DNA from: Vicinamibacteria bacterium
GTDB lineage: Bacteria; Acidobacteriota; Vicinamibacteria; Marinacidobacterales; Marinacidobacteraceae
Assembly (NCBI GenBank): GCA_963668695.2
Contig: CAXXLQ010000004.1
Span: 416,001 to 480,000 of the forward strand
Direction: 5' to 3'
Length of the DNA stretch: 64,000 bases
The notes below the pieces were generated by a model. It searched no databases. It saw only the letters and a list, made by a program, of their open reading frames with translations, and had not been told where the DNA came from. The position numbers and the translations under genes were made by a program. Shown one piece after another: positions 1,620 through 61,939 of the stretch; within the stretch, counting starts at the first letter, position 1; every line of letters begins with the position of its first letter.

Positions 1620-2720
1620 GTGTCCGGGTTTCCGATCCCCGCGCCGTTCCCGCGGTTGGCCGGGCTTGCCGCGAGCGGCCGGCTGCCGCAAAGCCTCCTG
1701 CTGAGCGGGCCTTCCGGCGCCCCCACGGTGGAGGCGGCGATCGCGCTCTCGGCCATCGTGAACAGTTCCGACCGGGACCCGGAGTCCGAGGCCACCCGCG
1801 TGCTCCACCAACGCATCGTGGGGACGGACTCGGCGTTCCGCACGGGCGGAGAGGCCGGCCGCGGGACCGGTCCGGCGGGCGGGCCCTACCCGGATGTTCG
1901 GATCCTGAGGCCCGAGAGCGGCAAGCCGATCCGGGTGGACGAGGTCCGCCAGGCGATCGCCGCGGTGCGAACCCATCCCTTCGAAGGGCGGCGGCGCGTC
2001 CTGGTGATCGAGGCCGCGGACACCATGAACCCCCCGGCCGCCAACGCGCTCCTCAAGACGCTCGAAGAGCCGCATCCGTGGCTCGGGCTGATTCTTTGCG
2101 CCACCCGGGAGGCGGCGCTCCTCCCCACGATCGTCTCCCGCTGCCAGCGCTGGCGCTTCGCGGCGCCCACCACGCCGGCGGTCGCCGCGCGGCTGCAGGA
2201 GGCGCACGACTACCCGCCGGAAGAAGCGGTGGTCGCCGCGGCCGCCGCCCGCGGCGACCTCGCGCGGGCGCTCGCGCTGCCGCGCGACCGGCTGTTGCCG
2301 CTCGCCGAGGAGGCCGAACGGATGGCCGTGATCGTCGGCCGGGGCATCGCGCCGCCGGCGCGGACGGCGCTGACCGAACGACTCATGAAGGCCTCTCCCC
2401 GCAGCCGGAAGGCGGGCCACATCGATGAACTGCAGACCGTTCTGGTGCTGCTCCGCGCCACCCTTCGCGATCTGGCGGCTCTTTGTTCCGAGAGCGCGGC
2501 GGTCTCCGGCGATGCCGGACACCTGCGGAAGATCGCCGAACTCGCGCCCGGGAGCGCTTTCGCGGAGGCGCTGCTCCTCGTCGAGGAGACCGACCGCAAC
2601 ATGTACCGCTCCTACGGCAACAAGCGGATGCAGCTCGACGCACTCCTGCTCGCCTTCAACGAGATCGCCCGGCCGTTGGTGGTTGCGCGGCTGCGCGCCC
2701 AGCGGGCTTCGCGGGGCTAG
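1620..2720 (+). CDS. holB: DNA polymerase III subunit delta'
   Basis: YPDVRIL, IRVDEVR, AANALLKTLEEP, LLPTIVSRCQ; tmk-holB synteny. Confidence 0.88.
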   Translation: MSGFPIPAPFPRLAGLAASGRLPQSLLLSGPSGAPTVEAAIALSAIVNSSDRDPESEATRVLHQRIVGTDSAFRTGGEAGRGTGPAGGPYPDVRILRPESGKPIRVDEVRQAIAAVRTHPFEGRRRVLVIEAADTMNPPAANALLKTLEEPHPWLGLILCATREAALLPTIVSRCQRWRFAAPTTPAVAARLQEAHDYPPEEAVVAAAAARGDLARALALPRDRLLPLAEEAERMAVIVGRGIAPPARTALTERLMKASPRSRKAGHIDELQTVLVLLRATLRDLAALCSESAAVSGDAGHLRKIAELAPGSAFAEALLLVEETDRNMYRSYGNKRMQLDALLLAFNEIARPLVVARLRAQRASRG

Positions 2721-2935
2721 CAGCCTGTGGTGAAACCCAGGCGGCCCAGTTCTCCCGGTGGGGGCTCGCCCGGCGATCCATCCCGGCTGAACCACTCCGC
2801 TTCGCTCCGTTCTGCGTTGCGTTTCGGTCGAAATACACCAGGTATTCCTCCCTCACGCGCCTTGTCAGCCGGGCCCCCACCGGGAGAACTGGGCCTCACC
2901 GGGCTCGGCGCTCACCCGGGTTCCACCACAGGCTG
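2721..2935. mobile_element. MITE copy A (179-bp core plus two 20-mer insertions)
   Basis: TIRs CAGCCTGTGGTGAAACCC / GGGTTCCACCACAGGCTG; flanks CTAG/CTAA; inserted at the holB TAG stop. Confidence 0.85.
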
Positions 2936-3115
2936 CTAAGGCACCGCCGACAACCCGGACGGCGCGCGACAGCGGAGCGCCAGCCTCTGAGCTTGCCCCG
3001 GTTGATCGGACCAGTAGGAATGGCCGAAACGCCGGTGACATGATCCGCAACCCCAAGAAACTGCGGTCGTAATCCCCGCAGACACAAGCGCCTCACCCGC
3101 CAGGAGACCCGCCCC

Positions 3116-3751: not shown

Positions 3752-4789
3752 ATGAGGAAGCACGCTTACCGGGTCGTCACGACCCTGCTGACGGCGCTGG
3801 GTCTCGGGGCCCTGTTTTCCCTCCGTTTCGTTGGTCTCTACAGCCACCAGGCGCTCGCGCTCGTGCTGCTGCTCGGCTCCGTCTGGGCGATCGCGAGCCG
3901 AATCTGGTGGGCGCGGAAGGGGCGCCTTCATCCGGGGCTGCTGCGGGGACTTCGTGGATCCGAGAATCGGCCCTACTTCGTCCAGGCGGTGGGGCGGGCG
4001 AGCTTCTGGGCGGCGGCCGCCGTCGCGTGCATCGCGGTTTTCCCCCGGTCGGCGGAGTTGACCACCCTGCTCGCCGGGATGATCGTCGTCGGCCTGCTTC
4101 GGGTCGCGGCATCCTTCCTCGTCCCGCGCCGGACGAACGCCGGGGCCACCCTCGTCATGGCGGCCGGCGCCCTGGTCCTGGCATTCGATCTTGGTCGCGC
4201 CTTTGTCGGGGGACCGGCCGCCGCACTACAGATCGCTCCCCCGTTCGCGGGGGAGTGGCTCGTGTTGCAGGGTGGTAACAGTCCCCTGCAGAGCCACCAT
4301 CTCGCGGCCTACAACCAGCGGTTCGCCCTCGATCTCGTCCGGTTGGAAGACGGCCGGATTTTCACCGGCGATCCGGGCGATGCGAATGCGACGGTCCATA
4401 GCTGGGAGCAGCCGCTGGTGTCGCCCGCGGACGGTACGGTGGTCGTCGCCCGCGACGAGATGGAAGACGCAGGCGGCGCGAACTTCGTGACCGAGCTCGC
4501 CGACGCGGCGGGGAACGTCATCGTCATCGAACTCGACACCGGTTTCTTCGTCCTCCTTGCGCATCTCCGGCACGGGACGCTCCGGGTCAGCGAAGGCGAC
4601 CGGGTCCGGAAGGGAGATCCGCTGGCGCTCGCCGGAAACTCGGGGAACACGACGATGCCGCACCTTCATCTCCAGGTGCAGACCCACCCTGACCTTTGGG
4701 ACCCCGACAACCGCTCGGTGCCCTTCGGATTCGGGCCCGACGGCCGGGTCCTGGCGCGCAACGATCGCGTCGGCGCGCCAGTCCCCTAG
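3752..4789 (+). CDS. M23 family metallopeptidase with N-terminal transmembrane domain
   Basis: H....QRFALD, LLAHL, GNSGNTTMPHLHLQ. Confidence 0.85.
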   Translation: MRKHAYRVVTTLLTALGLGALFSLRFVGLYSHQALALVLLLGSVWAIASRIWWARKGRLHPGLLRGLRGSENRPYFVQAVGRASFWAAAAVACIAVFPRSAELTTLLAGMIVVGLLRVAASFLVPRRTNAGATLVMAAGALVLAFDLGRAFVGGPAAALQIAPPFAGEWLVLQGGNSPLQSHHLAAYNQRFALDLVRLEDGRIFTGDPGDANATVHSWEQPLVSPADGTVVVARDEMEDAGGANFVTELADAAGNVIVIELDTGFFVLLAHLRHGTLRVSEGDRVRKGDPLALAGNSGNTTMPHLHLQVQTHPDLWDPDNRSVPFGFGPDGRVLARNDRVGAPVP

Positions 4790-6606
4790 CGCGGCGTTAC
4801 CGCCGCGCCCCGTCCCGACGACGATCCCGCCGGAATGATGGGCAGGATGACCTTCGAGGGATGCTCGGCATCGTGATAGATGCTGTTCTCCGCAACCACC
4901 ACCGGCATGTCCTCGTCCATCTCCCTGCCGGTGTTCCCGTTGGGATACCACTTCGGGAACGAGCTGCTCGACACCGTCAACCGGATGCGGTGGCCCGCCT
5001 TGAAGAGGTTCGAGATGGGATACATCTCGATGGCGAACTTGTAGACCTCGCCGGGGGTCATCAGGACCGGCGCCTCGTCGCCTTCCCGATAGCGCGCGCG
5101 CAGGATGTTCTGACGGAGCGTCAGCGAGTAGCCGTCCGGGAACACGTCGGTTAGCGTCACTGTCCAGTCGGTGTCGACCGCGCTGGACGAGGCATAGAGC
5201 TCCACGGTCGGCAGACCGGTGACTTCGGTGTCTTCTTCAAGCACGGGTGTCGTGAAGGTCAGGCTCCGGCGGTCGGCCGGCCGATTGTCTTGTGCCCCGT
5301 TGGGCTGGATGAACAGATCGCCGCCAATCGACGCCACCGGGTCGCGGGGGTCGTAGGTGTAGGTGTCGGCCGCCTCTTCTCCCGGCGGTTCGAGCGAGAG
5401 GGTGCCGTCGTTGAGCGAGTCGACCAAACCGGTCTTTTCGGCCCGGAAGAAGTAGTCCGTTCGCACCTCGCGGGCCAGCGGGTACTCGTGCTCGGCGCGC
5501 CAGGTGTTGGCGCCCATGATGAAGAGGCTCACCGCCGGCTCGTCCATGATGCCGTTGTCGATCCCCTTCAGGTGATAGTCGAACCACCTCAGGCGCAACC
5601 CGTTGTAGTCGATGGCCGCTTCGGGGCCGAAGTCGAGATCGCCGATCACCCGGGCGGTGATGAGACCGGCTCCGTGGAGCCAGGGCCCGGCGAACAGCTT
5701 CTGGCTGTCGCGGGCGCGCGGCCCGCCCTGGGCCTTGATGCCGTTGAAGTGCTTGACCTGCGAGTGCGGATAGCGGTCGTACCAGCTTGCGTAGTGGAGG
5801 ATCGGGACATCGATCTTGTCCCACTGCTCGTCGACCGCGTACTGCCGCCAGTAGTCGTTGTAGTACGGGTTGTCGATCATGTCCGTCATCATCGTCGTGA
5901 TCATGCTGTTGGCCATCGGCGAGCGGGTCTCGAGACGCCGCTCGTGCCACCTCCGCCAGGCGTCGTCACCGCCGACGTAGCCTGTCCGCCGTCCGGGTTC
6001 GTCGAGCGGCACCGGCTGGACCATCTCGTTCTGCGATAGCAGCCAGGTGGGCATGATCATGTGGAGCGCGCCGCCCGCCCAGTAGAGGTCCTTGTAGGCG
6101 TTCGACGCCGAGTGCGCGCAGAACATCGCGGACAGGTGCGGCGGCCGGGTCGGCGCCGTCAGGTACTGGTTGAAGCAGGTGAACGAGAGCCCCATGGTCC
6201 CGACCTTCCCGGTGGACCAGGGCTGGGTGCCCGCCCACTCGATCGTGTCGTAGCCGTCCTGGCGCTCGTGCCACGCCTCGTCGAGCAGCCAGTAGTAGAC
6301 GCCCTCCGAGTTGTAGCGGCCGCGCTCGTCCTGGACGATCGCCACGTAGCCGCGCTCGGCGAAGTAGGGCGCGAACCGGTGCTCGCAGCCGCCCTTGTTG
6401 TACGGCGTGCGCTCGAGGATGACGGGGAACGGGCCGTCGCCCTGATTGACCGGCATGTAGACGTCCGCGGCCAGCTTGGTGCCGTCCCGCATCGGGACCA
6501 TCACCTCTTCGCAGTTGTAGGGCTGGGCCACGGCGCTGCCGGCAGCAAGCAGGGCGAGCATGAATACGCCCAGCGCGATCGCGATCGGGCGGCTATTTGA
6601 AAGCAT
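4786..6606 (-). CDS. CocE/NonD family hydrolase, secreted
   Basis: Signal peptide, VPMRDGTKLAADVY, ERTPY, QDERGRYNSEG, GTMGLSF, GPWLH, C-terminal SSSFPKW. Confidence 0.9.
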   Translation of the reverse strand: MLSNSRPIAIALGVFMLALLAAGSAVAQPYNCEEVMVPMRDGTKLAADVYMPVNQGDGPFPVILERTPYNKGGCEHRFAPYFAERGYVAIVQDERGRYNSEGVYYWLLDEAWHERQDGYDTIEWAGTQPWSTGKVGTMGLSFTCFNQYLTAPTRPPHLSAMFCAHSASNAYKDLYWAGGALHMIMPTWLLSQNEMVQPVPLDEPGRRTGYVGGDDAWRRWHERRLETRSPMANSMITTMMTDMIDNPYYNDYWRQYAVDEQWDKIDVPILHYASWYDRYPHSQVKHFNGIKAQGGPRARDSQKLFAGPWLHGAGLITARVIGDLDFGPEAAIDYNGLRLRWFDYHLKGIDNGIMDEPAVSLFIMGANTWRAEHEYPLAREVRTDYFFRAEKTGLVDSLNDGTLSLEPPGEEAADTYTYDPRDPVASIGGDLFIQPNGAQDNRPADRRSLTFTTPVLEEDTEVTGLPTVELYASSSAVDTDWTVTLTDVFPDGYSLTLRQNILRARYREGDEAPVLMTPGEVYKFAIEMYPISNLFKAGHRIRLTVSSSSFPKWYPNGNTGREMDEDMPVVVAENSIYHDAEHPSKVILPIIPAGSSSGRGAAVTPR

Positions 6607-6767
6607 GGGTCTCCTCCACTCAGTCGAGTCGGTTACTGATTTCGCAGCCTACGGGCAGCCTTCGAGCCTGTCAATCGGGGATGGCGCGGAACCGCCGATT
6701 TCGATCGCAGGTAGCGCCACCGCGAAGGGAACACCGATCTTCAGACAAGCATGGTGGCGCGGAGGCT

Positions 6768-6875
6768 GGGAACGCCGGTCTTCAGACCGGCATCGCCCGC
6801 GCAGCGGGCGAAACTCCCTCCGCCACTCACCCTCACGGGACGCAGGCACGCGAACGCCGACCTCCAGTCGGCACC
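6768..6875. repeat. REP-like GC hairpin cluster
   Basis: GGGAACGCCGGTCTTCAGACCGGCA, a second hairpin ending GAAACTCCC, and GAACGCCGACCTCCAGTCGGCA; homologous units recur intergenically. Confidence 0.7.
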
Positions 6876-6915
6876 GCCAGCCGGAGGCTGGCGGAACGCA
6901 TATCGCTCTTCATCC

Positions 6916-8035
6916 GACGCATGCTCAGGCCGACCGATCCCGGGATTGACGCATGCTCGGGTCAACCGGCTCCGGGATAGACGCATGCTCAGGCCGACCG
7001 ATCCCGGTATTGACGCATGCCCGGGTCAACCGGCTCCGGGATAGACGCATGCTCAGGCCGACCGATCCCGGAATTGACGCATGCTCGGGTCAACCGGATA
7101 GACGCCGGGATATCCCGAGCCGGCCGACCCGGGACGCATGCTCAGGCCGACCGATCCCGGAATTGACGCATGCTTGAGCCGGCCGACCCCGGAATAGACG
7201 CATGCCCGGGTCAACCGGCTCCGGGATAGACGCATGCTCAGGCCGACCGATCCCGGGATAGACGCATGCTTGGGCCAGCCGACCCCGGAATAGACGCATG
7301 CCCGGGTCAACCGGCTCCGGGATAGACGCATGCTCAGGCCGACCGATCCCGGGATAGACGCATAGAGCCGACCCCGGAATAGACGCATGCCCGGGTCAAC
7401 CGGCTCCGGGATAGACGCATGCTCAGGCCGACCGATCCCGGAAGACGCATGCTTGGGCCGCCGACCCCGAAATAGACGCATGCCCGGGTCAACCGGCTCC
7501 GGGATAGACGCATGCTAGGCCGACCGATCCCGCATAGACGCATGCTTGGTCAACCGACCGATAGACGCATGCCCGGACCGATCCCGGACGCATGCTTGGG
7601 CCGGCCGACCCCCACCGGCTCCGGAATAGACGCATGCCAGCCGGATCGCCGACGATCCGGAATAGACGCATGCCCGGGTCAACCGGCTCCGGAATAGACG
7701 CATGCCCGAAATAGACGCATGCCCGGATCGACCGACCCCGAAATAGACGCATGCCCGGGTCAACCGGCTCCGGAAATAGACGCATGCCTCGGGCTCGACC
7801 GACCCCGAAATAGACGCATGCCCGGGATCAACCGCTCCGAAATAGACGCATGCCCGGGTCAACCGACCCCGAAATAGACGCATGCCCGGCCGGCCGACCC
7901 CGGAATAGACGCATGCCCGGGTCAACCGGCTCCGAAATAGACGCACCAACCCCCGGAATGGAGCGCATCCGCCGGCCCCGCTCCGAAATAGACGCATGCA
8001 GCCGAGTTGCCCGGTCAACCGGCTCCGAAATAGAC
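6916..8035. repeat. 32-bp minisatellite, about 35 units, core (ATA)GACGCATGC, with higher-order variants
   Basis: Cores at 6916, 6948, 6980, 7012, 7044, 7076 and onward; three related inter-core variants; degenerate after about 7520. Confidence 0.92.
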
Positions 8036-9409
8036 AGCGTGGAGTTCCGCGGCCAGCGTGGAGTTCACGCCCAGACCCCGAAGCGTGGAGACGCAGCGTG
8101 GAGTTCCCGCCAACAGACCCCGGCACAGCGTGGAGTTCCGCGGCTCACAGCGTGGAGTTCACGCCAACAGATCCCGCTCCAGAAATGGAGTTCCGCATGC
8201 CAGCGTGGAGTTCCGCGACCCCGACAGCGTGGAGTTCACGCCAACAGATCCCGCTACAGCGTGGAGTTCCGCGGCTTCAGCGTGGAGTTCACGCCGGCAG
8301 ACCCCGCTACAGCGTGGAGTTCCGCGGCTTCAGCGTGGAGTTCCCGCCAACAGATCCCGCTACAGCGTGGAGTTCCGCGGCTTCAGCGTGGAGTTCACGC
8401 CAACAGATCCCGCTACAGCGTGGAGTTCCGCGGCTTCAGCGTGGAGTTCCCGCCAACAGATCCCGCTACAGCGTGGAGTTCCGCGGCTTCAGCGTGGAGT
8501 TCCCGCCAACAGACCCCGCTACAGCGTGGAGTTCCGCGGCTTCAGCGTGGAGTTCCCGCCAACAGATCCCGCTACAGCGTGGAGTTCCGCGGCTTCAGCG
8601 TGGAGTTCCCGCCAACAGATCCCGCTACAGCGTGGAGTTCCGCGGCTTCAGCGTGGAGTTCCCGCCAACAGATCCCGCTACAGCGTGGAGTTCCGCGGCT
8701 TCAGCGTGGAGTTCACGCCAGCAGACCCCGCCAGAGCGTGGAGTCCGCATCCGCCTGTCAAGCGACAGATAAAACTGGGCCACCGGCGACAGATAAAACT
8801 GGGCCACCCCGAAGGGTCCGGGACGTTCATCGCGTTGTCTCTGGCTGGTTCCCCGTTGTGCGCTCGGCGGAGGAGGAGAGGACGCTGAGGAGCCCGGAAG
8901 CGTCCGCCGCCACGACTTCCAGAACCGCCGGAGCCGAGCCCTCCGATCCGGCCGGCCGGCGAGGGCGTCGACCGGCACTTCCGCACGTCGCGTCCGACGA
9001 ACATTCTGAACCTCGGGCAGAATCCCGCCAGTCGGAAACAACGAGCCAGCAGCCAGCAGCCGCGGCCCCCGAGGATGACCAGGACGCCCGCTTCGAGGGC
9101 CTTCCCAAGGTGTTCATCCGCAATGCCGCCGCGGTCGGGCCTCGGCCGCACCCGGAAGCCCTGCGCGCGCTGATCCTCGACATCTGCCGCCACCGCGACT
9201 GGACCACCCCGGCCGAACTCGCTCGCTGGTTTGACATGCACCGGCGGAGCCTCGCGAACCGCTACATCCGGCCGCTCCTGGAGGCCGGGATGCTGGAGCG
9301 GCAGTTTCCGGACAGCCCGAACACCCCGAAACAGGCGTACCGGACGCGGCGCGAAGACCCAGCGCTGTCCGAGGCCGGCACGGGCAGGCTCTCGATTCCG
9401 GAGGATTGA
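7850..9409 (+). CDS. repeat-spanning ORF ending in a winged-HTH domain (Fic/RecG-C-terminal type); true start uncertain, possibly a gene remnant
   Basis: C-terminal LILDICRHRDWTTPAELARWFDMHRRSLANRYIRPLLEAGMLERQFPDSPNTPKQAYRT; the N-terminal part is translated repeat. Confidence 0.5.
   Translation: MPGSTDPEIDACPAGRPRNRRMPGSTGSEIDAPTPGMERIRRPRSEIDACSRVARSTGSEIDSVEFRGQRGVHAQTPKRGDAAWSSRQQTPAQRGVPRLTAWSSRQQIPLQKWSSACQRGVPRPRQRGVHANRSRYSVEFRGFSVEFTPADPATAWSSAASAWSSRQQIPLQRGVPRLQRGVHANRSRYSVEFRGFSVEFPPTDPATAWSSAASAWSSRQQTPLQRGVPRLQRGVPANRSRYSVEFRGFSVEFPPTDPATAWSSAASAWSSRQQIPLQRGVPRLQRGVHASRPRQSVESASACQATDKTGPPATDKTGPPRRVRDVHRVVSGWFPVVRSAEEERTLRSPEASAATTSRTAGAEPSDPAGRRGRRPALPHVASDEHSEPRAESRQSETTSQQPAAAAPEDDQDARFEGLPKVFIRNAAAVGPRPHPEALRALILDICRHRDWTTPAELARWFDMHRRSLANRYIRPLLEAGMLERQFPDSPNTPKQAYRTRREDPALSEAGTGRLSIPED
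8035..8745. repeat. 53-bp (21+32) tandem repeat, core CAGCGTGGAGTTC
   Basis: Regular from 8225 to 8733, cores at 8225, 8257, 8278 ... 8702; alternating linkers CGCGGCTT and MCGCCAACAGAYCCCGCTA. Confidence 0.95.
8756..8809 (+). mobile_element. orphan IS21-family-like terminal sequence
   Basis: Starts TGTCAAG, then two direct copies (24-bp period) of GCGACAGATAAAACTGGGCCACC; no istA/istB follows. Confidence 0.6.
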
Positions 9410-9549
9410 CTCTTGGGCAACCGCACGGCGCAGCACGAAGACTCACAGCGGCGGCGCCGCCATTGCCCCGGTGGGATCGGACTCGGTGCTGCTGAATATC
9501 CAGCGGTCACTGCATAGGTACTCTTCTGGTACCGGCGGAGGCGCCACGC

Positions 9550-9852
9550 ATGGATAGAACGTCCCTCTCCGTTCGGAAGCTCCATGAGTTCTTCGAGAGC
9601 CAGCTTCGAGTGGAGTTCGCCGAACAGCACCACCGCGAGTTCGTGCTGCTGTTCCATAACGACGTATCGCAAGCGCTCGATCACGCCGAGTTGGCAGATC
9701 GCCTACGGCAGACTGCCCTCTTTTTCGAGAGCATGGAGGCCGCGGTGGACCGGGCATACGAAATAGAACTGGAGCCCGGCTACTTCCTGGTTGCCGAGTG
9801 CATTCGCCCTGAGGAACGGGAGCCCGCTGTCTTCCATTCGAGAGTGGCGTAG
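9550..9852 (+). CDS. hypothetical protein (100 aa)
   Basis: GGAGG RBS, ATG start, protein-like composition. Confidence 0.6.
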   Translation: MDRTSLSVRKLHEFFESQLRVEFAEQHHREFVLLFHNDVSQALDHAELADRLRQTALFFESMEAAVDRAYEIELEPGYFLVAECIRPEEREPAVFHSRVA

Positions 9853-10008
9853 ATTCCGGGGCCGATGATGAGCGGCCGGATCGCCCCGAACACCCCGAAA
9901 CAGGCATACCGCACCCGTCGGGAGGACCCATCGGACTCGGGTCCCGGCGCTGGTTAGCGAACCGGGCTCGCTCCGCGCCGCGGTTGCTGCCGGAGCGGCG
10001 AATCATTA

Positions 10009-10046
10009 TTGTTGAATATCCATCTACTCCAATGGATATTCAACAA
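10009..10046. promoter_or_regulatory. perfect 14-bp inverted repeat, putative operator overlapping a start codon
   Basis: TTGTTGAATATCCA-N10-TGGATATTCAACAA; ATG at 10032. Confidence 0.6.
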
Positions 10047-11213
10047 CATACCGATCGCCCGGAACTGCGCCAAACCATCCTCCAGGGTCTCTCCGAGGCC
10101 CCCGTGGTCGCTCTGCTCGGAGCGCGGCAGGTCGGCAAGACAACCCTCGCCCGACAGATCGCCTCGGATTGGCCGGGCCCCTCGACCATCCTCGATCTCG
10201 AACGCCCCACCGTGCGCGAAGCCCTTTCCCGCACTCCGGAGCGAATGCTGAGCGGCCGGGAAGGTCTCGTCGTCCTCGACGAAATCCAGCGGTTGCCCGA
10301 GCTGTTCGAGACGCTCCGGCCGATCTCCGACGACCCGGATCGCAAGGCCGTCTTTCTTCTCCTCGGCAGCGCCTCCTGGGATCTGATCGCGGGGATCTCC
10401 GAGACTCTCGCCGGCCGCATCCTGTTCGTAGACGTGGCCGGCTTCTCGGTGTGGGAGGTGGGTACGGCCCACTTGGACCGCCTCTGGATGCGCGGCGGCT
10501 TCCCCCGCGCCTGGCTCGCTTCTTCGCCGGAAGCGTGGACGCGATGGATGCGCTCCTTCACCCGCACCTTCCTGGAACGCGACATTCCGGGGCTCGGCTC
10601 AAGGGTCGCCCCGGAAGCCCTCGGCCGTTTCTGGCGGATGCTCGCCCACTGGCACGGCCAGCTCTGGAACGCCAGCGAGCTGGCGCGGTCCATGGACGTG
10701 AGCCCCACCGCGGTGAACCACTACCGCGACCTGCTCGCCGGTTCCTTCATGATCCGGGTGCTGCCTCCCTGGTTCGAGAATCTGGGAAAGCGGCTCGTCA
10801 AGTCGCCGAGGGTGTTCCTGCGCGACAGCGGGGTCCTGCACTTCCTGCTGGGCCTTGAAGACCCGGATCAACTCCCCCTCCACCCACGCTACGGCGCCAG
10901 TTGGGAGGGATTCGCCCTCGAGCAAACACTCATCGCCCACGGCGGGCACGAGGCCTACTTCTACCGGACCCAGCGAGGGGCAGAACTGGACCTGCTGCTC
11001 CTGCGCGGCGGGAAGCGGTTCGGCTTCGAGTTCAAGTGCTCCGATGCCCCGAAGACCACGAAGTCCATGCACATCGTCATCGACGACCTGGGGCTCGAAC
11101 ACCTGTGGGTCGTCTATCCGGGCGAGTTGGAGTACCCGCTGGCCGACCGGATTACGGCCCTGCCCCTGAGTAAGGTACGAGGCTTGTCACTGTCGAGATC
11201 GGGCCGGTCATGA
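10032..11213 (+). CDS. AAA_14/DUF4143-type ATP-binding protein
   Basis: GARQVGKTT, VVLDEIQ, LLGSAS, RGGFP, KRLVKSPRVFLRDSG, C-terminal ELD...FEFK. Confidence 0.88.
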   Translation: MDIQQHTDRPELRQTILQGLSEAPVVALLGARQVGKTTLARQIASDWPGPSTILDLERPTVREALSRTPERMLSGREGLVVLDEIQRLPELFETLRPISDDPDRKAVFLLLGSASWDLIAGISETLAGRILFVDVAGFSVWEVGTAHLDRLWMRGGFPRAWLASSPEAWTRWMRSFTRTFLERDIPGLGSRVAPEALGRFWRMLAHWHGQLWNASELARSMDVSPTAVNHYRDLLAGSFMIRVLPPWFENLGKRLVKSPRVFLRDSGVLHFLLGLEDPDQLPLHPRYGASWEGFALEQTLIAHGGHEAYFYRTQRGAELDLLLLRGGKRFGFEFKCSDAPKTTKSMHIVIDDLGLEHLWVVYPGELEYPLADRITALPLSKVRGLSLSRSGRS

Positions 11214-12136
11214 ACCGAGAGGAATTCCTCACGGCGCTGGACAGCCTCAACGTGTGGAAGCGCGGGGGCGTGCGAGCACCGCACAAACCGCTCCTGCTCC
11301 TCCTGGCGCTCGGCCGGCTCTCGCAGGATGAGAAGCGGCTCGTTCGCTACGAAGACGTGGAAGCCCGGCTACGGCAACTGCTTGAACGGTTCGGACCTCC
11401 GCGCCAGGTCACCCACCCTGAGTTCCCCTTCTGGCACCTGCAGACGGACGGAATCTGGGAGATCCCGGATAGGGACAGCCTCCCGAAGAAGAAGGGAGGT
11501 AGGTCCGTTTCTGCCGCCACGCTGCGCAGGCTGGGAGTCCAGGGCGGACTTCCGACCGGATTGGATCAACTCCTGCGGACGGACCCGGAACTCATCGAGA
11601 CAGCAGCGGTCACGCTGCTGAACGGTCACTTCCCCGAGTCCTTCCACACGCCTATCCGGGATGCCGTCGGGCTCGCGGATCCGATGGCGCTCGAGACCCC
11701 AACCGAGTACGGAACCACGCGGCGCCGCAGGCGCGACCCGAACTTCCGGCGGGCCGTAATGACCGCCTACGAACGCCGCTGCGCGGTCTGCGACTTCGAT
11801 GTCCGGCTCGACGACGACCTGCTGGGACTCGACGCCGCTCACATCAAGTGGCACGCCGCCGGCGGGCCGGACATGGTTCCCAACGGGCTTGCCCTCTGCA
11901 AGCTCCACCACCACGCGCTCGATCGGGGCGCGATTGGCCTCGCTGCAGTCAGCGGCCGCGAGCTAAGACTCTTGATCTCCCAGGAACTCAGCGGAACGAG
12001 CGAAGCCTTCCGCCAGTTGGTGGACGCTCGAGGCCGACCGGTGCGGAAGCCGCAGGAGCACGCGCAACTCCCGGATCCCGCGTTCGTGGACTGGCATCGC
12101 CGGGAGGTCTTCCGGGGAGAACCCCGGACTTCCTGA
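11210..12136 (+). CDS. HNH endonuclease with N-terminal SBD-like domain (putative modification-dependent restriction endonuclease)
   Basis: RAPHKPLLLL, PEFPFWHL, RDPNFRRAV..AY..RCAVC, AAHIKW, NGLALCKLHHHALDRG; ATGA overlap with the ATPase gene. Confidence 0.85.
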   Translation: MNREEFLTALDSLNVWKRGGVRAPHKPLLLLLALGRLSQDEKRLVRYEDVEARLRQLLERFGPPRQVTHPEFPFWHLQTDGIWEIPDRDSLPKKKGGRSVSAATLRRLGVQGGLPTGLDQLLRTDPELIETAAVTLLNGHFPESFHTPIRDAVGLADPMALETPTEYGTTRRRRRDPNFRRAVMTAYERRCAVCDFDVRLDDDLLGLDAAHIKWHAAGGPDMVPNGLALCKLHHHALDRGAIGLAAVSGRELRLLISQELSGTSEAFRQLVDARGRPVRKPQEHAQLPDPAFVDWHRREVFRGEPRTS

Positions 12137-17911: not shown

Positions 17912-17919
17912 TGACTTAA

Positions 17920-18098
17920 CAGCCTGTGGTGAAACCCAGGCGGCGTTCGAGCGGCGATGCATCCCGCCTGAACCGCGCCGCTTTGCGGCGCTCTGCGTTG
18001 CGTTTCGGTCGAAATACACTCGGTATTCCTCCCTCACGCGCCTTGTCAGCCGGGCGCCTCCCCGCTCTCGGCGCTCACCCGGGTTCCACCACAGGCTG
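17920..18098. mobile_element. MITE copy B (uninterrupted, 179 bp)
   Basis: TIRs as in copy A; perfect TTAA target duplication; inserted at the smpB TAA stop. Confidence 0.9.
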
Positions 18099-18611
18099 TT
18101 AACCCAGCGCCTCGCGGACCTCGCGGGCGGCTTCGCGCTGCTTGATGGTTTCGCGGCGGTCCCGGGTGCTCTTGCCCTTGGCGAGAGCGACCTGGACCTT
18201 GATCCAGCCGTTCCGGAGGTGGATGCGGAGCGGCACCAGGGTGAGCCCGGCCATCGTGAGCTTCCCGGCGATCCGCTGCATCTCGTCCTCGTGGAGCAGC
18301 AGCTTCCGGTTCCGTTCCGGATTCCCCTGCTCCGGGGGGGCGTGCACGTAGGGCGCGATGTGGCAGTTCACGAGGAAGAGTTCGCCGTTTCGCTCGCGGC
18401 CGTAGGCGTCCTTCAGGTTCGCCCCGCCGGACCGGCAGGACTTCACCTCGGCCCCGGTGAGCGCGACGCCCGCCTCGAACTGCTCGAGGATGACGAAGTT
18501 CCGCCGCGCTCTCCGGTTCTCCGCAAGCACCTGCTCGTTGCGAAAGCCTCCCGAACCGGCTCGAGCAGCGCGAAGCCGGCGTTTCTTCCTGGCGGTCTTC
18601 TTTCGGCTCAT
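18099..18611 (-). CDS. smpB: SsrA-binding protein
   Basis: NRRAR, FEAGVALTGAEVKS, RKLLLH, LTLVPL, ALAKGK. Confidence 0.95.
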   Translation of the reverse strand: MSRKKTARKKRRLRAARAGSGGFRNEQVLAENRRARRNFVILEQFEAGVALTGAEVKSCRSGGANLKDAYGRERNGELFLVNCHIAPYVHAPPEQGNPERNRKLLLHEDEMQRIAGKLTMAGLTLVPLRIHLRNGWIKVQVALAKGKSTRDRRETIKQREAAREVREALG

Positions 18612-18687
18612 GAAAACCAGTCTAGCGGTCAGGTGCCGAAAACAGCACGGGTCTACCCCTCACGTTTACCATGCGGGGACCCCGAAG

Positions 18688-19920
18688 ATGCCCGAATTCC
18701 TCTGCCAGGTCGGCGAACCCGCGGGCGACCTGCGGCGGCTCCGGCTGACCGCCCGGGACGCCGATGCTGCCCGCCAGGAACTGCAGAGCCAGGGGCTTCA
18801 CGTCTTCGCGATTCGGCGCACCTCGCCCCTCGCCGCGCTGGGCCGTCTCTTCGAAGCGGGCACTCCCATCTTCCGCAGCCGGCGCCGGGTCCGGAGCCGC
18901 GACGTGCTGCTCTTCAACCAGGAGCTGGCCGCGCTGCTCCACGCCGGGCTGCCGCTCGCGGAGTCACTCGGGATCATGGTGGAGCGCATGGAGAACCCGA
19001 CCTTTCGGGATGCAGTCCAGACGATCCTCTCCGAGGTGCGGTCCGGGGTGCCGATGAGCACTGCGGTGAGCCGCTATCCGTTTTTCCCGTCGGTGTATCC
19101 GGCGTGCCTCCAGGCGGGGGAGACCAGCGGCGACCTCCCGGGGATGCTCGTGCGGTTCACGGACGCCATGCGGGTGGCCGTAAAGGCGCGGTCCAGCCTG
19201 ACCGCCGCCCTGGTCTATCCCGCATTCCTGCTCACCGCACTCCTCGGGACGGCTGCCTATCTCCTCCTGGGGGTGATCCCCAACTTCGTCCCCTTCTTCG
19301 CCGGCTTCAACCAGGAGCTGCCCCCCCTGACCACGGCGCTGCTGGCCGCCGCCGAATTCGTGAAGAGCCGGCTCCTCTGGGTGACCACCGGCCTCCTCGG
19401 CACGCTCCTGCTCTTCGCCGCCTGGTCGCGCACCGAAAGGGCCAAGCGTTTCCGGGACCGCTGGGTCCTGCGCCTCCCGGCGGTGGGAGGGGTGCTGAGG
19501 CTCTACGCCGTGTCCCAATTCTCGCGGGCGCTCGGGACCCTGCTCGGCGGGGGGATGCCGCTCGCGAGCGCAATCCCGGTGGCGGCGCGGGCGGTAGGCA
19601 ACCGCCACCTCAGGAGCGTGCTGGAACCCACCGCCGATCTGGTCCGCGAGGGCCGTTCCTTCGTGGAGACACTCGCCGACAGCGGCGAGATCCCCGGCTT
19701 CGCGCTCCAGATGGTCCGGGTGGGAGAGGGCACCGGCGACCTCGCCCGGATGGTTTCCTCGGTCGCCGATTTCAACGACGAGGTGATCGAGAACCGGGTG
19801 ACCGTGCTCCTCAGCCTGCTCACCCCGATCGTGCTCCTCATCCTGGGCGGCTTTGTGGCGCTCGTGCTCCTCGCGATCTACCTCCCCCTCTTCAGCCTCG
19901 CCTCGGTGCCCCAATTCTGA
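18688..19920 (+). CDS. type II secretion / type IV pilus inner-membrane protein (GspF/PilC family)
   Basis: FNQELAALLHAGLPL, AGETSGDL, AALVYP, MVRVGEGTGDL, AIYLPLF. Confidence 0.9.
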   Translation: MPEFLCQVGEPAGDLRRLRLTARDADAARQELQSQGLHVFAIRRTSPLAALGRLFEAGTPIFRSRRRVRSRDVLLFNQELAALLHAGLPLAESLGIMVERMENPTFRDAVQTILSEVRSGVPMSTAVSRYPFFPSVYPACLQAGETSGDLPGMLVRFTDAMRVAVKARSSLTAALVYPAFLLTALLGTAAYLLLGVIPNFVPFFAGFNQELPPLTTALLAAAEFVKSRLLWVTTGLLGTLLLFAAWSRTERAKRFRDRWVLRLPAVGGVLRLYAVSQFSRALGTLLGGGMPLASAIPVAARAVGNRHLRSVLEPTADLVREGRSFVETLADSGEIPGFALQMVRVGEGTGDLARMVSSVADFNDEVIENRVTVLLSLLTPIVLLILGGFVALVLLAIYLPLFSLASVPQF

Positions 19921-19992
19921 GATGCCAGTTCTGAAATGCCAGTTCTGAAATGCCGGTTCTGAAATGCCAGTTCTGAAATGCCAGTTCTGAAA
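19915..19992. repeat. 14-bp tandem repeat TTCTGAAATGCCAG, about 5.5 copies
   Basis: Units start at 19915, 19929, 19943, 19957, 19971, 19985; the first unit contains the gspF stop. Confidence 0.92.
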
Positions 19993-20004
19993 ACGCCAAC
20001 TCCG

Positions 20005-20511
20005 ATGCGCGCCCTCCCGAAGGCCGGACTTCCCCGGCCGGCGGGCCAGCGCGGCTTCACGCTCATCGAGCTGGTGGTGGCGGCCGGGATCCTGTCGGTG
20101 CTGGCGATGGCGATCATCCCGGTCGCCAAGGTCACCTCCGTCCGGGCCAAGGAGATCGAACTCCGCCGCAACCTCCGCACCGTTCGGCTCGCGATCGACG
20201 CCTACCGGGAGGCCGCCGAGGCCGGGGAGATCGATCCCGACTTCATCGAACCCGACCACGAGAACTATCCGCCCGATCTGGAGGCGCTCGTGGAGGGGGT
20301 TCCCGGCCCCCGCGGGCCGGACGGGAGAACCCCCGTCATTCGCTTCCTTCGCCGCCTGCCGACGGACCCGGTGACCGGACGCCCCGACTGGCTGCTGCGC
20401 TCCTATCAGGACGACCCGGGCAGACTCTCGTGGGGCGGCCAGAACGTCTACGACCTCCGCTCCGCATCGCCCCGCCTCGCCCTCGACGGCACGCCGTATC
20501 GGTCATGGTGA
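20005..20511 (+). CDS. pseudopilin (GspG-like)
   Basis: Prepilin site RG|FTLIELVV; KEIELRRNL, FLRRLPTDP, VYDLRS; alternative ATG at 19978. Confidence 0.88.
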   Translation: MRALPKAGLPRPAGQRGFTLIELVVAAGILSVLAMAIIPVAKVTSVRAKEIELRRNLRTVRLAIDAYREAAEAGEIDPDFIEPDHENYPPDLEALVEGVPGPRGPDGRTPVIRFLRRLPTDPVTGRPDWLLRSYQDDPGRLSWGGQNVYDLRSASPRLALDGTPYRSW

Positions 20512-61779: not shown

Positions 61780-61852
61780 GGGCCCATAGCTCAGTGGTTA
61801 GAGCGGCCGGCTCATAACCGGTTGGTCCCAGGTTCGAGTCCTGGTGGGCCCA
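61780..61852 (+). tRNA. tRNA with CAT anticodon, probably tRNA-Ile2 (elongator Met not excluded)
   Basis: GGGCCCA/TGGGCCC acceptor stem, GCCGG-CTCATAA-CCGGT, GGTTCGAGTCC; G1-C72 pair excludes the initiator; downstream of rpoD; CCA not encoded. Confidence 0.92.
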
Positions 61853-61939
61853 CCGGCCGCAGTTTCACCGGAGTCCGCGGGTCGTCCGTCCGGTTGCTCC
61901 GCATCGCGCGTAGCGCGCCTCCCGAGAGGGGCTGACACA

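Follow-up and report, generated by a model that had tools for sequence, protein, structure and literature searches.

The window analysed here is a 64,000-nucleotide stretch of a Vicinamibacteria contig, and positions are counted from its first letter. It contains a 1.8-kb block of two abutting arrays of short direct repeats, which leads into the remnant of a gene for a winged helix-turn-helix (wHTH) protein. We consider it about an even chance that this block is the orphaned relic of a phased repeat that lay upstream of a promoter, and that it now behaves as a variable-number tandem repeat (VNTR). This reading starts from what was demonstrated at the locus and its relatives, namely the anatomy of the arrays, their homology to one another, their non-coding status, the variation in copy number, the truncation of the gene and the insertion of IS21-family elements. 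At the DNA level the comparison covered five loci, the window and four loci from a genome scan (L001 to L004), all four of which come from metagenome-assembled genomes (MAGs) of Vicinamibacteria/'Ca. Marinacidobacterium'.

Anatomy and non-coding nature of the arrays

Array 1 (6916 to 8034, + strand) consists of about 35 units that are nominally 32 bp long and have the core GACGCATGC. It was found that 32 exact copies of this core are present, all on the + strand and all within positions 6916 to 7999 (0.95 expected; none of 100 shuffles reached 32). Tandem Repeats Finder (TRF) gave a 32-bp period with higher-order rows of 64, 89, 96 and 185 bp, and a unit-by-unit reading with three unit types (A, B and C) gave the order ABABAB followed by ACB. 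Core counts, TRF and the reading of units therefore confirmed the 32-bp period and the AB-then-ACB pattern that had been noted in a preliminary description of this DNA. The core-to-core interval was exactly 32 bp in 17 of 31 cases and ranged from 17 to 83 bp in the others, and the 17 in-register units were of 14 distinct types. Array 1 is the older, indel-ridden array.

Array 2 (8035 to 8750, + strand) abuts array 1 and is built of 21-bp and 32-bp units with a different core, CAGCGTGGAGTTC, which is not palindromic and of which 25 exact copies were found, only between 8035 and 8714 (0.11 expected; 0 of 100 shuffles). The alternating 21- and 32-bp spacing of the preliminary description holds over the last 18 intervals, which make up nine clean 53-bp units; the eight older intervals before them are irregular (13 to 53 bp). 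The 53-bp (21 + 32) higher-order units form the youngest block (8201 to 8748, + strand; 10.3 copies with 95% matches by TRF). A 24-bp sequence present twice follows at 8762 to 8808, in a segment (8755 to 8808, + strand) that is the vestige of a conserved array-to-promoter boundary (CTGTCA.G ... AACTG). Neither GACGCATGC nor CAGCGTGGAGTTC occurs outside the arrays in the 64-kb window, which has no second large array elsewhere. A clustered regularly interspaced short palindromic repeat (CRISPR) array was considered and rejected, because the constant part is only 9 to 13 bp long and the 8- to 23-bp 'spacers' are a few repeated types.

A mechanical open reading frame (ORF) of 519 amino acids runs from 7850 to 9409 on the + strand, and the preliminary description had read the 21-bp subunit in it as the heptad SVEFRGF. 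We found, however, that the arrays are non-coding. The GC content by codon position is flat in both arrays (0.67/0.64/0.64 and 0.63/0.69/0.64), compared with 0.69/0.53/0.87 for the wHTH segment; neither period (32 or 53 bp) is divisible by 3, so that the reading frame rotates with each unit; and in array 1 a TAG or TGA occurs in every + frame each 96 bp. In the homologous arrays of L001 and L002 a TAG is present in every unit, and because the core there is palindromic, the TAG closes both strands. It is therefore scarcely credible that the arrays encode tandem peptides, such as SVEFRGF, at the N terminus of the wHTH protein. Such a coding repeat would agree with the open frame of ORF 7850-9409, with the fact that all three + frames are open across array 2, and with the 18 ORFs of this kind predicted by gene callers in public assemblies, but the frame stays open through array 2 only because the repeat unit lacks a stop triplet in each of the + frames, and the full-length relatives begin downstream of the array. 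The short peptide repeats that the preliminary description had mentioned as often lying just before such HTH domains are not there either: the full-length relatives have a Pro-rich disordered linker in that place instead.

Transcription of the repeats followed by processing to unit-length RNAs is also very improbable. All units have one common orientation, and for some segments the predicted fold was better than that of shuffled sequence (z = -2.3 to -5.2), but no Rfam family matched the arrays at the gathering score or even at E <= 1, and no promoter-like site was found (sigma-70-type promoters within units: 0 found vs 0.3 expected). Furthermore, no consistent RNA fold was found across the arrays: the folds differ among arrays, those of L001 are only palindromic cores pairing between units, and the + strand of array 1 had z = 0.0.

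Homologous loci and the truncated wHTH gene

The preliminary description had raised the possibility that arrays with co-varying cores lie upstream of homologous wHTH genes, and this proved to be the case: an array with a period of 31 to 33 bp is directly upstream of the gene in three of the four other loci, and the cores differ. L004 has about 69 units of the window array-1 type, with an interval of 32 bp in 64 of 69 cases, followed by five array-2 cores spaced 21, 32, 32 and 21 bp apart; the corresponding counts for the window are about 35 and 27 cores. The L001 array has 9 cores, GCTACTAGT(AGC), with an interval of 32 bp in 6 of 8 cases, and the L002 array has 12 cores of the same sequence as L001, with intervals of 33, 31 and 32 bp and a 96-bp higher-order unit at 94% identity. 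L003 has a single degenerate unit only. The window, L002 and L004 are syntenic, whereas the flanks of L001 differ, with the array and gene still together. When the long unit of window array 2 was compared with the L001 unit, 22 of 32 positions were identical in register (hand count), and the similarity of the spacers had a z value of 5.8, which none of 500 shuffles reached. Within arrays, the first 12 nt of the unit are invariant and about 10 other positions are variable (in-register units compared: 64 from L004, 17 from the window).

Both types of array were also found, in translation, in public collections. Array-2-type repeats are translated in 18 database ORFs from public assemblies, with a lag of 53 amino acids on top in 7 of the 18, and array-1-type repeats in 25 database ORFs, with a lag of 32 amino acids on top in 7 of the 25 and a lag of 64 in 2. 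Two ORFs (P0224 and P0231) read through about two array-1 units and then a long array 2. The 53-bp (21 + 32) architecture that had been described from the window alone thus recurs in other contigs and is not private to the source genome. At least 43 'proteins' in public collections (18 + 25; P0217 to P0258, P0011 and P0001-like ORFs) are translations of repeat arrays and hence annotation artefacts, and the 519-amino-acid ORF of the window is likewise no gene over its repeat part.

Since the homologous arrays are in register and change in core and copy number, the locus is a conserved but hypervariable minisatellite. In keeping with a VNTR, the units are direct and head-to-tail, within the range of about 10 to 100 bp, and non-coding, and their copy number varies at the same locus. 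Minisatellites of kilobase scale with higher-order units are unusual in bacterial chromosomes. Because the position is conserved across several Vicinamibacteria while the sequence turns over, the locus provides a natural system for concerted evolution of bacterial repeats and a VNTR marker for an uncultured clade. In the literature, we found no paper on tandem repeats in Vicinamibacteria and none on Marinacidobacterium, the matches on Acidobacteria minisatellites being irrelevant, and nothing matching on tandem repeats and helical turns among the matches listed.

The arrays have repeatedly received IS21-family insertions. In L004 an IS21-family element (IstA/IstB) is located inside a repeat unit, at 5401 to 7896, with a 5-bp target duplication. 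Solo IS21-family ends are found at the left array edge in L001 (8943 to 8992; 92% over 50 nt, E = 3e-14) and in L002 (8848 to 8895; 91% over 34 nt), and 3 of the 25 array-1 ORFs (P0237, P0242 and P0253) run into IS21 ends. In its account of target choice, a structural study of IS21 describes selection by DNA deformation and cites a preference for promoter-adjacent curved DNA (PMC11208146). The recurrent insertions are compatible with an array that bends easily and also with a target that is simply large and dispensable. We considered separately whether the array serves as a spacer that keeps a site further upstream, TGTCTCCCAACTG, in phase with the promoter; this was rejected because the supposed site turned out to be a terminal repeat belonging to an IS21-family element.

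The end of ORF 7850-9409 matches the Pfam family Fic-like_C (PF21247) at 9239 to 9343, with 36.1 bits against a cut-off of 27 and over profile positions 28 to 62 of 64. Of 9 long homologues scanned, 7 are AlbA_2/HATPase_c_4 proteins that end in this domain, and a Fic protein (4rgl) is the nearest solved sequence to the window wHTH (E = 0.0012). The earlier assignment of the wHTH to the Fic and AlbA type is upheld by the PF21247 match and by the domain architecture of the long homologues. Among representatives at 50% identity, 717 relatives of the wHTH segment were found at E <= 0.001, and the close relatives are a family of about 325 to 395 amino acids with an N-terminal motif PPGLxAIRxW, a Pro-rich linker and the wHTH. 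The gene counterpart of the window remnant in related genomes codes for a protein of about 340 amino acids. In a word-based search, this helical N-domain/linker/wHTH family comprised 71 clusters in Acidobacteriota, with one named member, annotated as a 'hypothetical protein' in an Acidobacteriota MAG. The intact L001 protein, as modelled with AlphaFold (mean predicted local distance difference test score 75), has three long helices (residues 29 to 150), a disordered stretch (150 to 225) and a very confident wHTH that resembles MarR/ArsR-type domains and 4rgl; in Foldseek comparison with the PDB, only the wHTH was matched, with all E-values at or above 0.013. The N-terminal domain had no Pfam, NCBIfam or PADLOC family and no usable match in the ESM Atlas. 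The family is uncharacterised and widespread in Acidobacteriota, and the upstream repeats are the obvious first candidates for its DNA target.

In L001 to L003 the array ends at a conserved boundary (CTGTCACGAACTGTAA ... TATAnnnTTTG), and the start codon is about 60 bp further. The window keeps only the first part of this boundary, as the 24-bp sequence present twice, and then jumps to about codon 140 to 170 of the gene; the start codon and the remainder of the promoter-like segment are absent. What follows is a 5'-truncated remnant of the helical N-domain/linker/wHTH gene (8840 to 9409, + strand), with the linker remnant at 8840 to 9106 and the wHTH at about 9107 to 9370. The full architecture of the family is therefore not present in the window, which has the end of the linker and the wHTH only; a tblastn search with 11 homologues found C-terminal parts but no N-terminal domain anywhere in the window, and there is no second copy of the gene within the 64 kb.

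The truncation is common to sister genomes, in which the damage to the remnant differs: P0003 has a frameshift in the wing, and in L004, P0011 and P0230 the linker and the C-terminal half are both lost. The same truncation combined with independent damage in sister genomes is the pattern expected of a pseudogene. Among the five loci the gene is intact in L001 only; L002 has one frameshift and L003 has a frameshift and a 3' truncation. Errors in the MAG sequences might account for some of these breaks. The two largest arrays, those of the window and L004, are beside the two most degraded genes.

In this Vicinamibacteria clade, direct repeats of about 32 bp form an array immediately upstream of the promoter-like segment of a conserved gene, the product of which has three long helices at the N terminus and a Fic-like_C winged helix at the C terminus, joined by a disordered Pro-rich linker. 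We propose that all of the arrays descend from a single ancestral 32-bp unit. They would change by in-register unequal recombination or slippage, with variants being homogenised within a genome, and higher-order units of 64, 96 and 53 (21 + 32) bp would have been amplified. In the lineage of the window, a deletion of the promoter and about the first 140 codons would have orphaned the array, which may then have grown to about 1.8 kb, with a latest burst that would have yielded nine or ten near-identical 53-bp units. We infer that the ancestral short array played an architectural part at the promoter, either as upstream DNA that was in helical phase and possibly curved or as a platform for cooperative binding, or as both, and that the array of the window no longer serves the wHTH remnant and drifts essentially neutrally.

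Several points weigh against an orphaned, neutrally drifting relic. Periods of near-integer turns have been kept while the sequence turned over, which hints at a constraint on spacing; in an exploratory calculation with a provisional sequence-dependent twist table the units sum to 3.02, 3.02, 3.03, 4.99, 2.99 and 9.03 turns. The invariant 12-nt run within arrays has, by our own estimate, a p value of about 0.05, and a 9-nt core is common to L001 and L002 although their genes are only 71% identical in DNA. The wHTH remnant retains an intact domain with a coding-like GC content of 0.87 at the third codon position, and it might be expressed from a GTG at 9107, which is the start used for the database protein P0002 (97% identical). 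Bacteria usually delete useless DNA, and a purely neutral sequence would therefore not be expected to persist as these arrays have done, in more than 40 contigs. Finally, the comparison at the DNA level is limited to five loci.

Helical phasing and alternative explanations

At 10.5 bp/turn, the spacings of 21, 32 and 53 bp correspond to 2.0, 3.05 and 5.05 helical turns, and the preliminary description had placed the regular cores on the same face of the DNA. This is right for neighbouring cores but not for the whole array, as the coherence at 10.5 bp/turn was poor (R = 0.17 for array 1, 0.36 for array 2 and 0.05 for L004); for the regular arrays, R was high only near 10.6 to 10.67 bp/turn. Curvature was predicted with an exploratory wedge model and a provisional dinucleotide table of parameters. 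For seven segments of 32-bp arrays (three from window array 1, two from L004, and one each from L001 and L002), the ratio of end-to-end distance to contour length was 0.44 to 0.81, compared with a mean of 0.925 for 190 background pieces, and all seven were in the most curved 0 to 2.6% of 320-bp pieces. Array 2 was predicted to be straight, with a ratio of 0.94, at the background median. Shuffled units in tandem were as curved as the real ones (fractions 0.05, 0.84 and 0.20), and therefore the signal comes from periodicity alone.

One alternative is that the arrays are active landing sites (iteron-, operator- or centromere-like, or a titration sponge) for a wHTH-family protein, from the remnant or from another copy, that assembles cooperatively at two- and three-turn spacing. 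We regard this as unlikely. In its favour, the array and gene stay together even with non-syntenic flanks (L001), the arrays abut the promoter-like segment of the gene, the cores are invariant within arrays, and the near-integer-turn spacing is conserved. The core of L001 and L002, GCTACTAGTAGC, is moreover a perfect 12-bp palindrome, as often found in dimeric wHTH operators, and the predicted structure of the full-length protein has long helices and a confident wHTH, the latter resembling MarR/ArsR DNA binders with the Foldseek E-values given above. However, the recognition helix is almost unchanged across genomes that have different cores (MHRRSLANRYIRPL in the window and MHRRSLSNRYIRPL in L002 are one residue apart, and the cores are unrelated at central positions), which argues against the wHTH reading the cores. 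On these comparisons, binding of the cores by the adjacent wHTH is unproven and disfavoured. Array size is also greatest beside the most degraded genes (window and L004), the decay of the remnants has taken separate courses in sister genomes, the array-2 core lacks a palindrome, and there is no second gene copy within 64 kb. As the window has no cores outside the arrays, it also has no other site from which the arrays could titrate a regulator. A bolder version, which we find quite doubtful, would be a previously undescribed chromosomal nucleoprotein platform of Acidobacteriota, in which a coiled-coil/wHTH protein would polymerise on tens of direct sites exactly two and three turns apart upstream of its own gene. 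The sites would co-evolve rapidly with a specificity determinant other than the recognition helix, the platform would become uncontrolled and balloon to kilobases in lineages without the protein, and the capture of IS21 would reflect a bent DNA superstructure. Also rather improbable is a sequence-independent architectural element, in which the whole-turn repeats would be curved or bendable DNA acting on a neighbouring promoter or the nucleoid without the wHTH protein. It would explain why the period is kept while the sequence changes, and it agrees with the place of the 32-bp-array segments among the most curved pieces and with the repeated IS21 strikes, given the preference for deformable, curved DNA stated in the treatment of target choice in PMC11208146. 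Against it, array 2 is predicted to be straight, real units are no more curved than shuffled tandems, the parameter table is provisional, many indels in window array 1 disrupt the phase, and the IS strikes may only mean a large dispensable target.

The preliminary description had named an iteron or centromere among its suggestions. We consider it highly unlikely that the block is where a plasmid-like element, now integrated, had its origin of replication or its centromere for partition, there being no replicon or partition sign. Direct repeats do adjoin a wHTH gene, and a short AT-richer segment is present between array and gene in L001 to L003. However, no Rep, ParA, ParM or TubZ domain was found in the 18 neighbouring ORFs scanned with Pfam (1.4 to 20.5 kb), and no motor NTPase was found among the L001 neighbours. 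A Rep-type initiator would have two winged-helix domains, whereas Pfam shows only Fic-like_C and HTH_20 and the AlphaFold2 model has a single wHTH. In plasmid and phage collections there was no match for the array DNA (distant blastn) or for the full-length protein (tblastn); a GC-skew switch was not seen (DnaA boxes were not searched), and the loci are in contigs of 2.1 to 4.5 Mb at a syntenic chromosomal site. An assembly artefact, with repeats collapsed or expanded, has a similarly slight chance of being the answer. Assemblers are prone to errors in long tandem repeats, and the exact number of copies comes from the assembly alone, but L004, on an independent contig of 4.5 Mb, has both array types at this locus, the array types occur in dozens of database ORFs from other contigs, and the many distinct, irregular units of array 1 are a further point against it.

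If the block is the VNTR-like relic that we prefer, its nearest likenesses are among bacterial intergenic minisatellites, of which the mycobacterial interspersed repetitive unit (MIRU)-VNTR loci of mycobacteria are an example. Those loci are alike in having head-to-tail units of tens of bp, an intergenic location, a copy number that varies at one locus, and change by slippage or unequal recombination; the present arrays are longer (1.8 to 2.2 kb, with up to about 70 units) and have higher-order units of 53, 64 and 96 bp, and, unlike MIRU-VNTR loci, their cores turn over while the 32-bp period stays, and they are tied to the upstream region of one gene family. Concerted evolution, higher-order amplification and turnover of sequence at a kept period are also features of eukaryotic centromeric satellites, which differ in kingdom, scale and function, no kinetochore-like role being indicated here. 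Plasmid iterons usually have 3 to 9 copies, whereas the present arrays have tens. As plasmid iterons and winged-helix Rep proteins are described in PMC4980987, the resemblance lies in direct repeats beside a winged-helix gene and in spacing near whole turns (the 21-bp subunit), and the difference in the single wHTH without a Rep Pfam match, the absence of a replicon context and the main period of 32 bp. In the TubR-tubC type III partition system, as outlined in PMC6009700, a small HTH protein that binds the centromere extends along clusters of iterons overlapping the promoter of its own gene, and the site, tubC, is 352 bp long, lies on a prophage and has two kinds of iteron. The gene for an HTH protein with iteron clusters and the two repeat kinds in one site are alike, but the present arrays are chromosomal and up to 2 kb long, have no TubZ-like motor gene nearby and adjoin a broken gene. 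The tandem repeats of Borgs, in the description given in PMC9879509, are likewise rapidly evolving, recently formed direct repeats; they are pervasive on a giant extrachromosomal element and within genes make disordered protein regions, whereas here a single non-coding chromosomal locus is concerned.

Neighbouring genes and other repeats

On the left of the arrays, the divergent neighbour is a CocE/NonD (S15) hydrolase gene (4786 to 6606, - strand; Pfam Peptidase_S15 and PepX_C, NCBIfam TIGR00976), which is the left anchor of the syntenic locus and in synteny with L002 and L004. Between it and array 1 is a hairpin-rich intergenic leader (6607 to 6915) that is common to L002 and L004 and has degenerate repeats of about 41 bp at 6727 to 6793. 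On the right of the gene remnant is a small conserved ORF of 100 amino acids without a family match (9550 to 9852, + strand), with coding-like GC by codon position and a match to residues 88 to 163 of P0011. This ORF, which is conserved in P0011 and L004, is more likely to be a real gene than the overlapping 187-amino-acid ORF on the - strand (9443 to 10006), which is probably spurious.

The preliminary description had placed the arrays at the head of a defence-like island, and two defence-type genes are indeed present just downstream. The first encodes an AAA_14/DUF4143 ATPase with a match to the PADLOC candidate system PDC-S01 (9984 to 11213, + strand), and the second an HNH protein that matches a restriction endonuclease family binding phosphorothioated DNA (NCBIfam NF045808; 11210 to 12136, + strand). 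This islet (9984 to 12136) is variable among the syntenic loci.

The tetranucleotide CTAG is depleted 2.5- to 8-fold outside the arrays in these genomes, and it occurs in nearly every unit of the L001 (8993 to 9272) and L002 (8898 to 9275) arrays, with 8 and 11 copies in 300 to 390 bp. A restriction-site decoy was considered, with the depletion of CTAG outside the arrays put at 4- to 6-fold, but it is disfavoured, GCATGC being only mildly depleted and the array-2 core being without a palindrome.

A dispersed element of about 200 bp that resembles a miniature inverted-repeat transposable element, with terminal inverted repeats of about 25 bp, was found in the window (2712 to 2938 and 17916 to 18101) and in L001 (2229 to 2432 and 18106 to 18305). 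Some copies have an extra insert of about 20 bp (CCAGTTCTCCCGGTGGGGGC, in either orientation), and by our reading the same 20-mer is just upstream of the L001 array. A 14-bp tandem repeat of 5.9 copies (CCAGTTCTGAAATG) at 19911 to 19992 covers the 3' end of ORF 18219-19934 and the start of ORF 19978-20511, which has a prokaryotic N-terminal methylation, pilin-like motif. The sole RNA gene detected in the window is a tRNA-Met (CAT) at 61780 to 61854.

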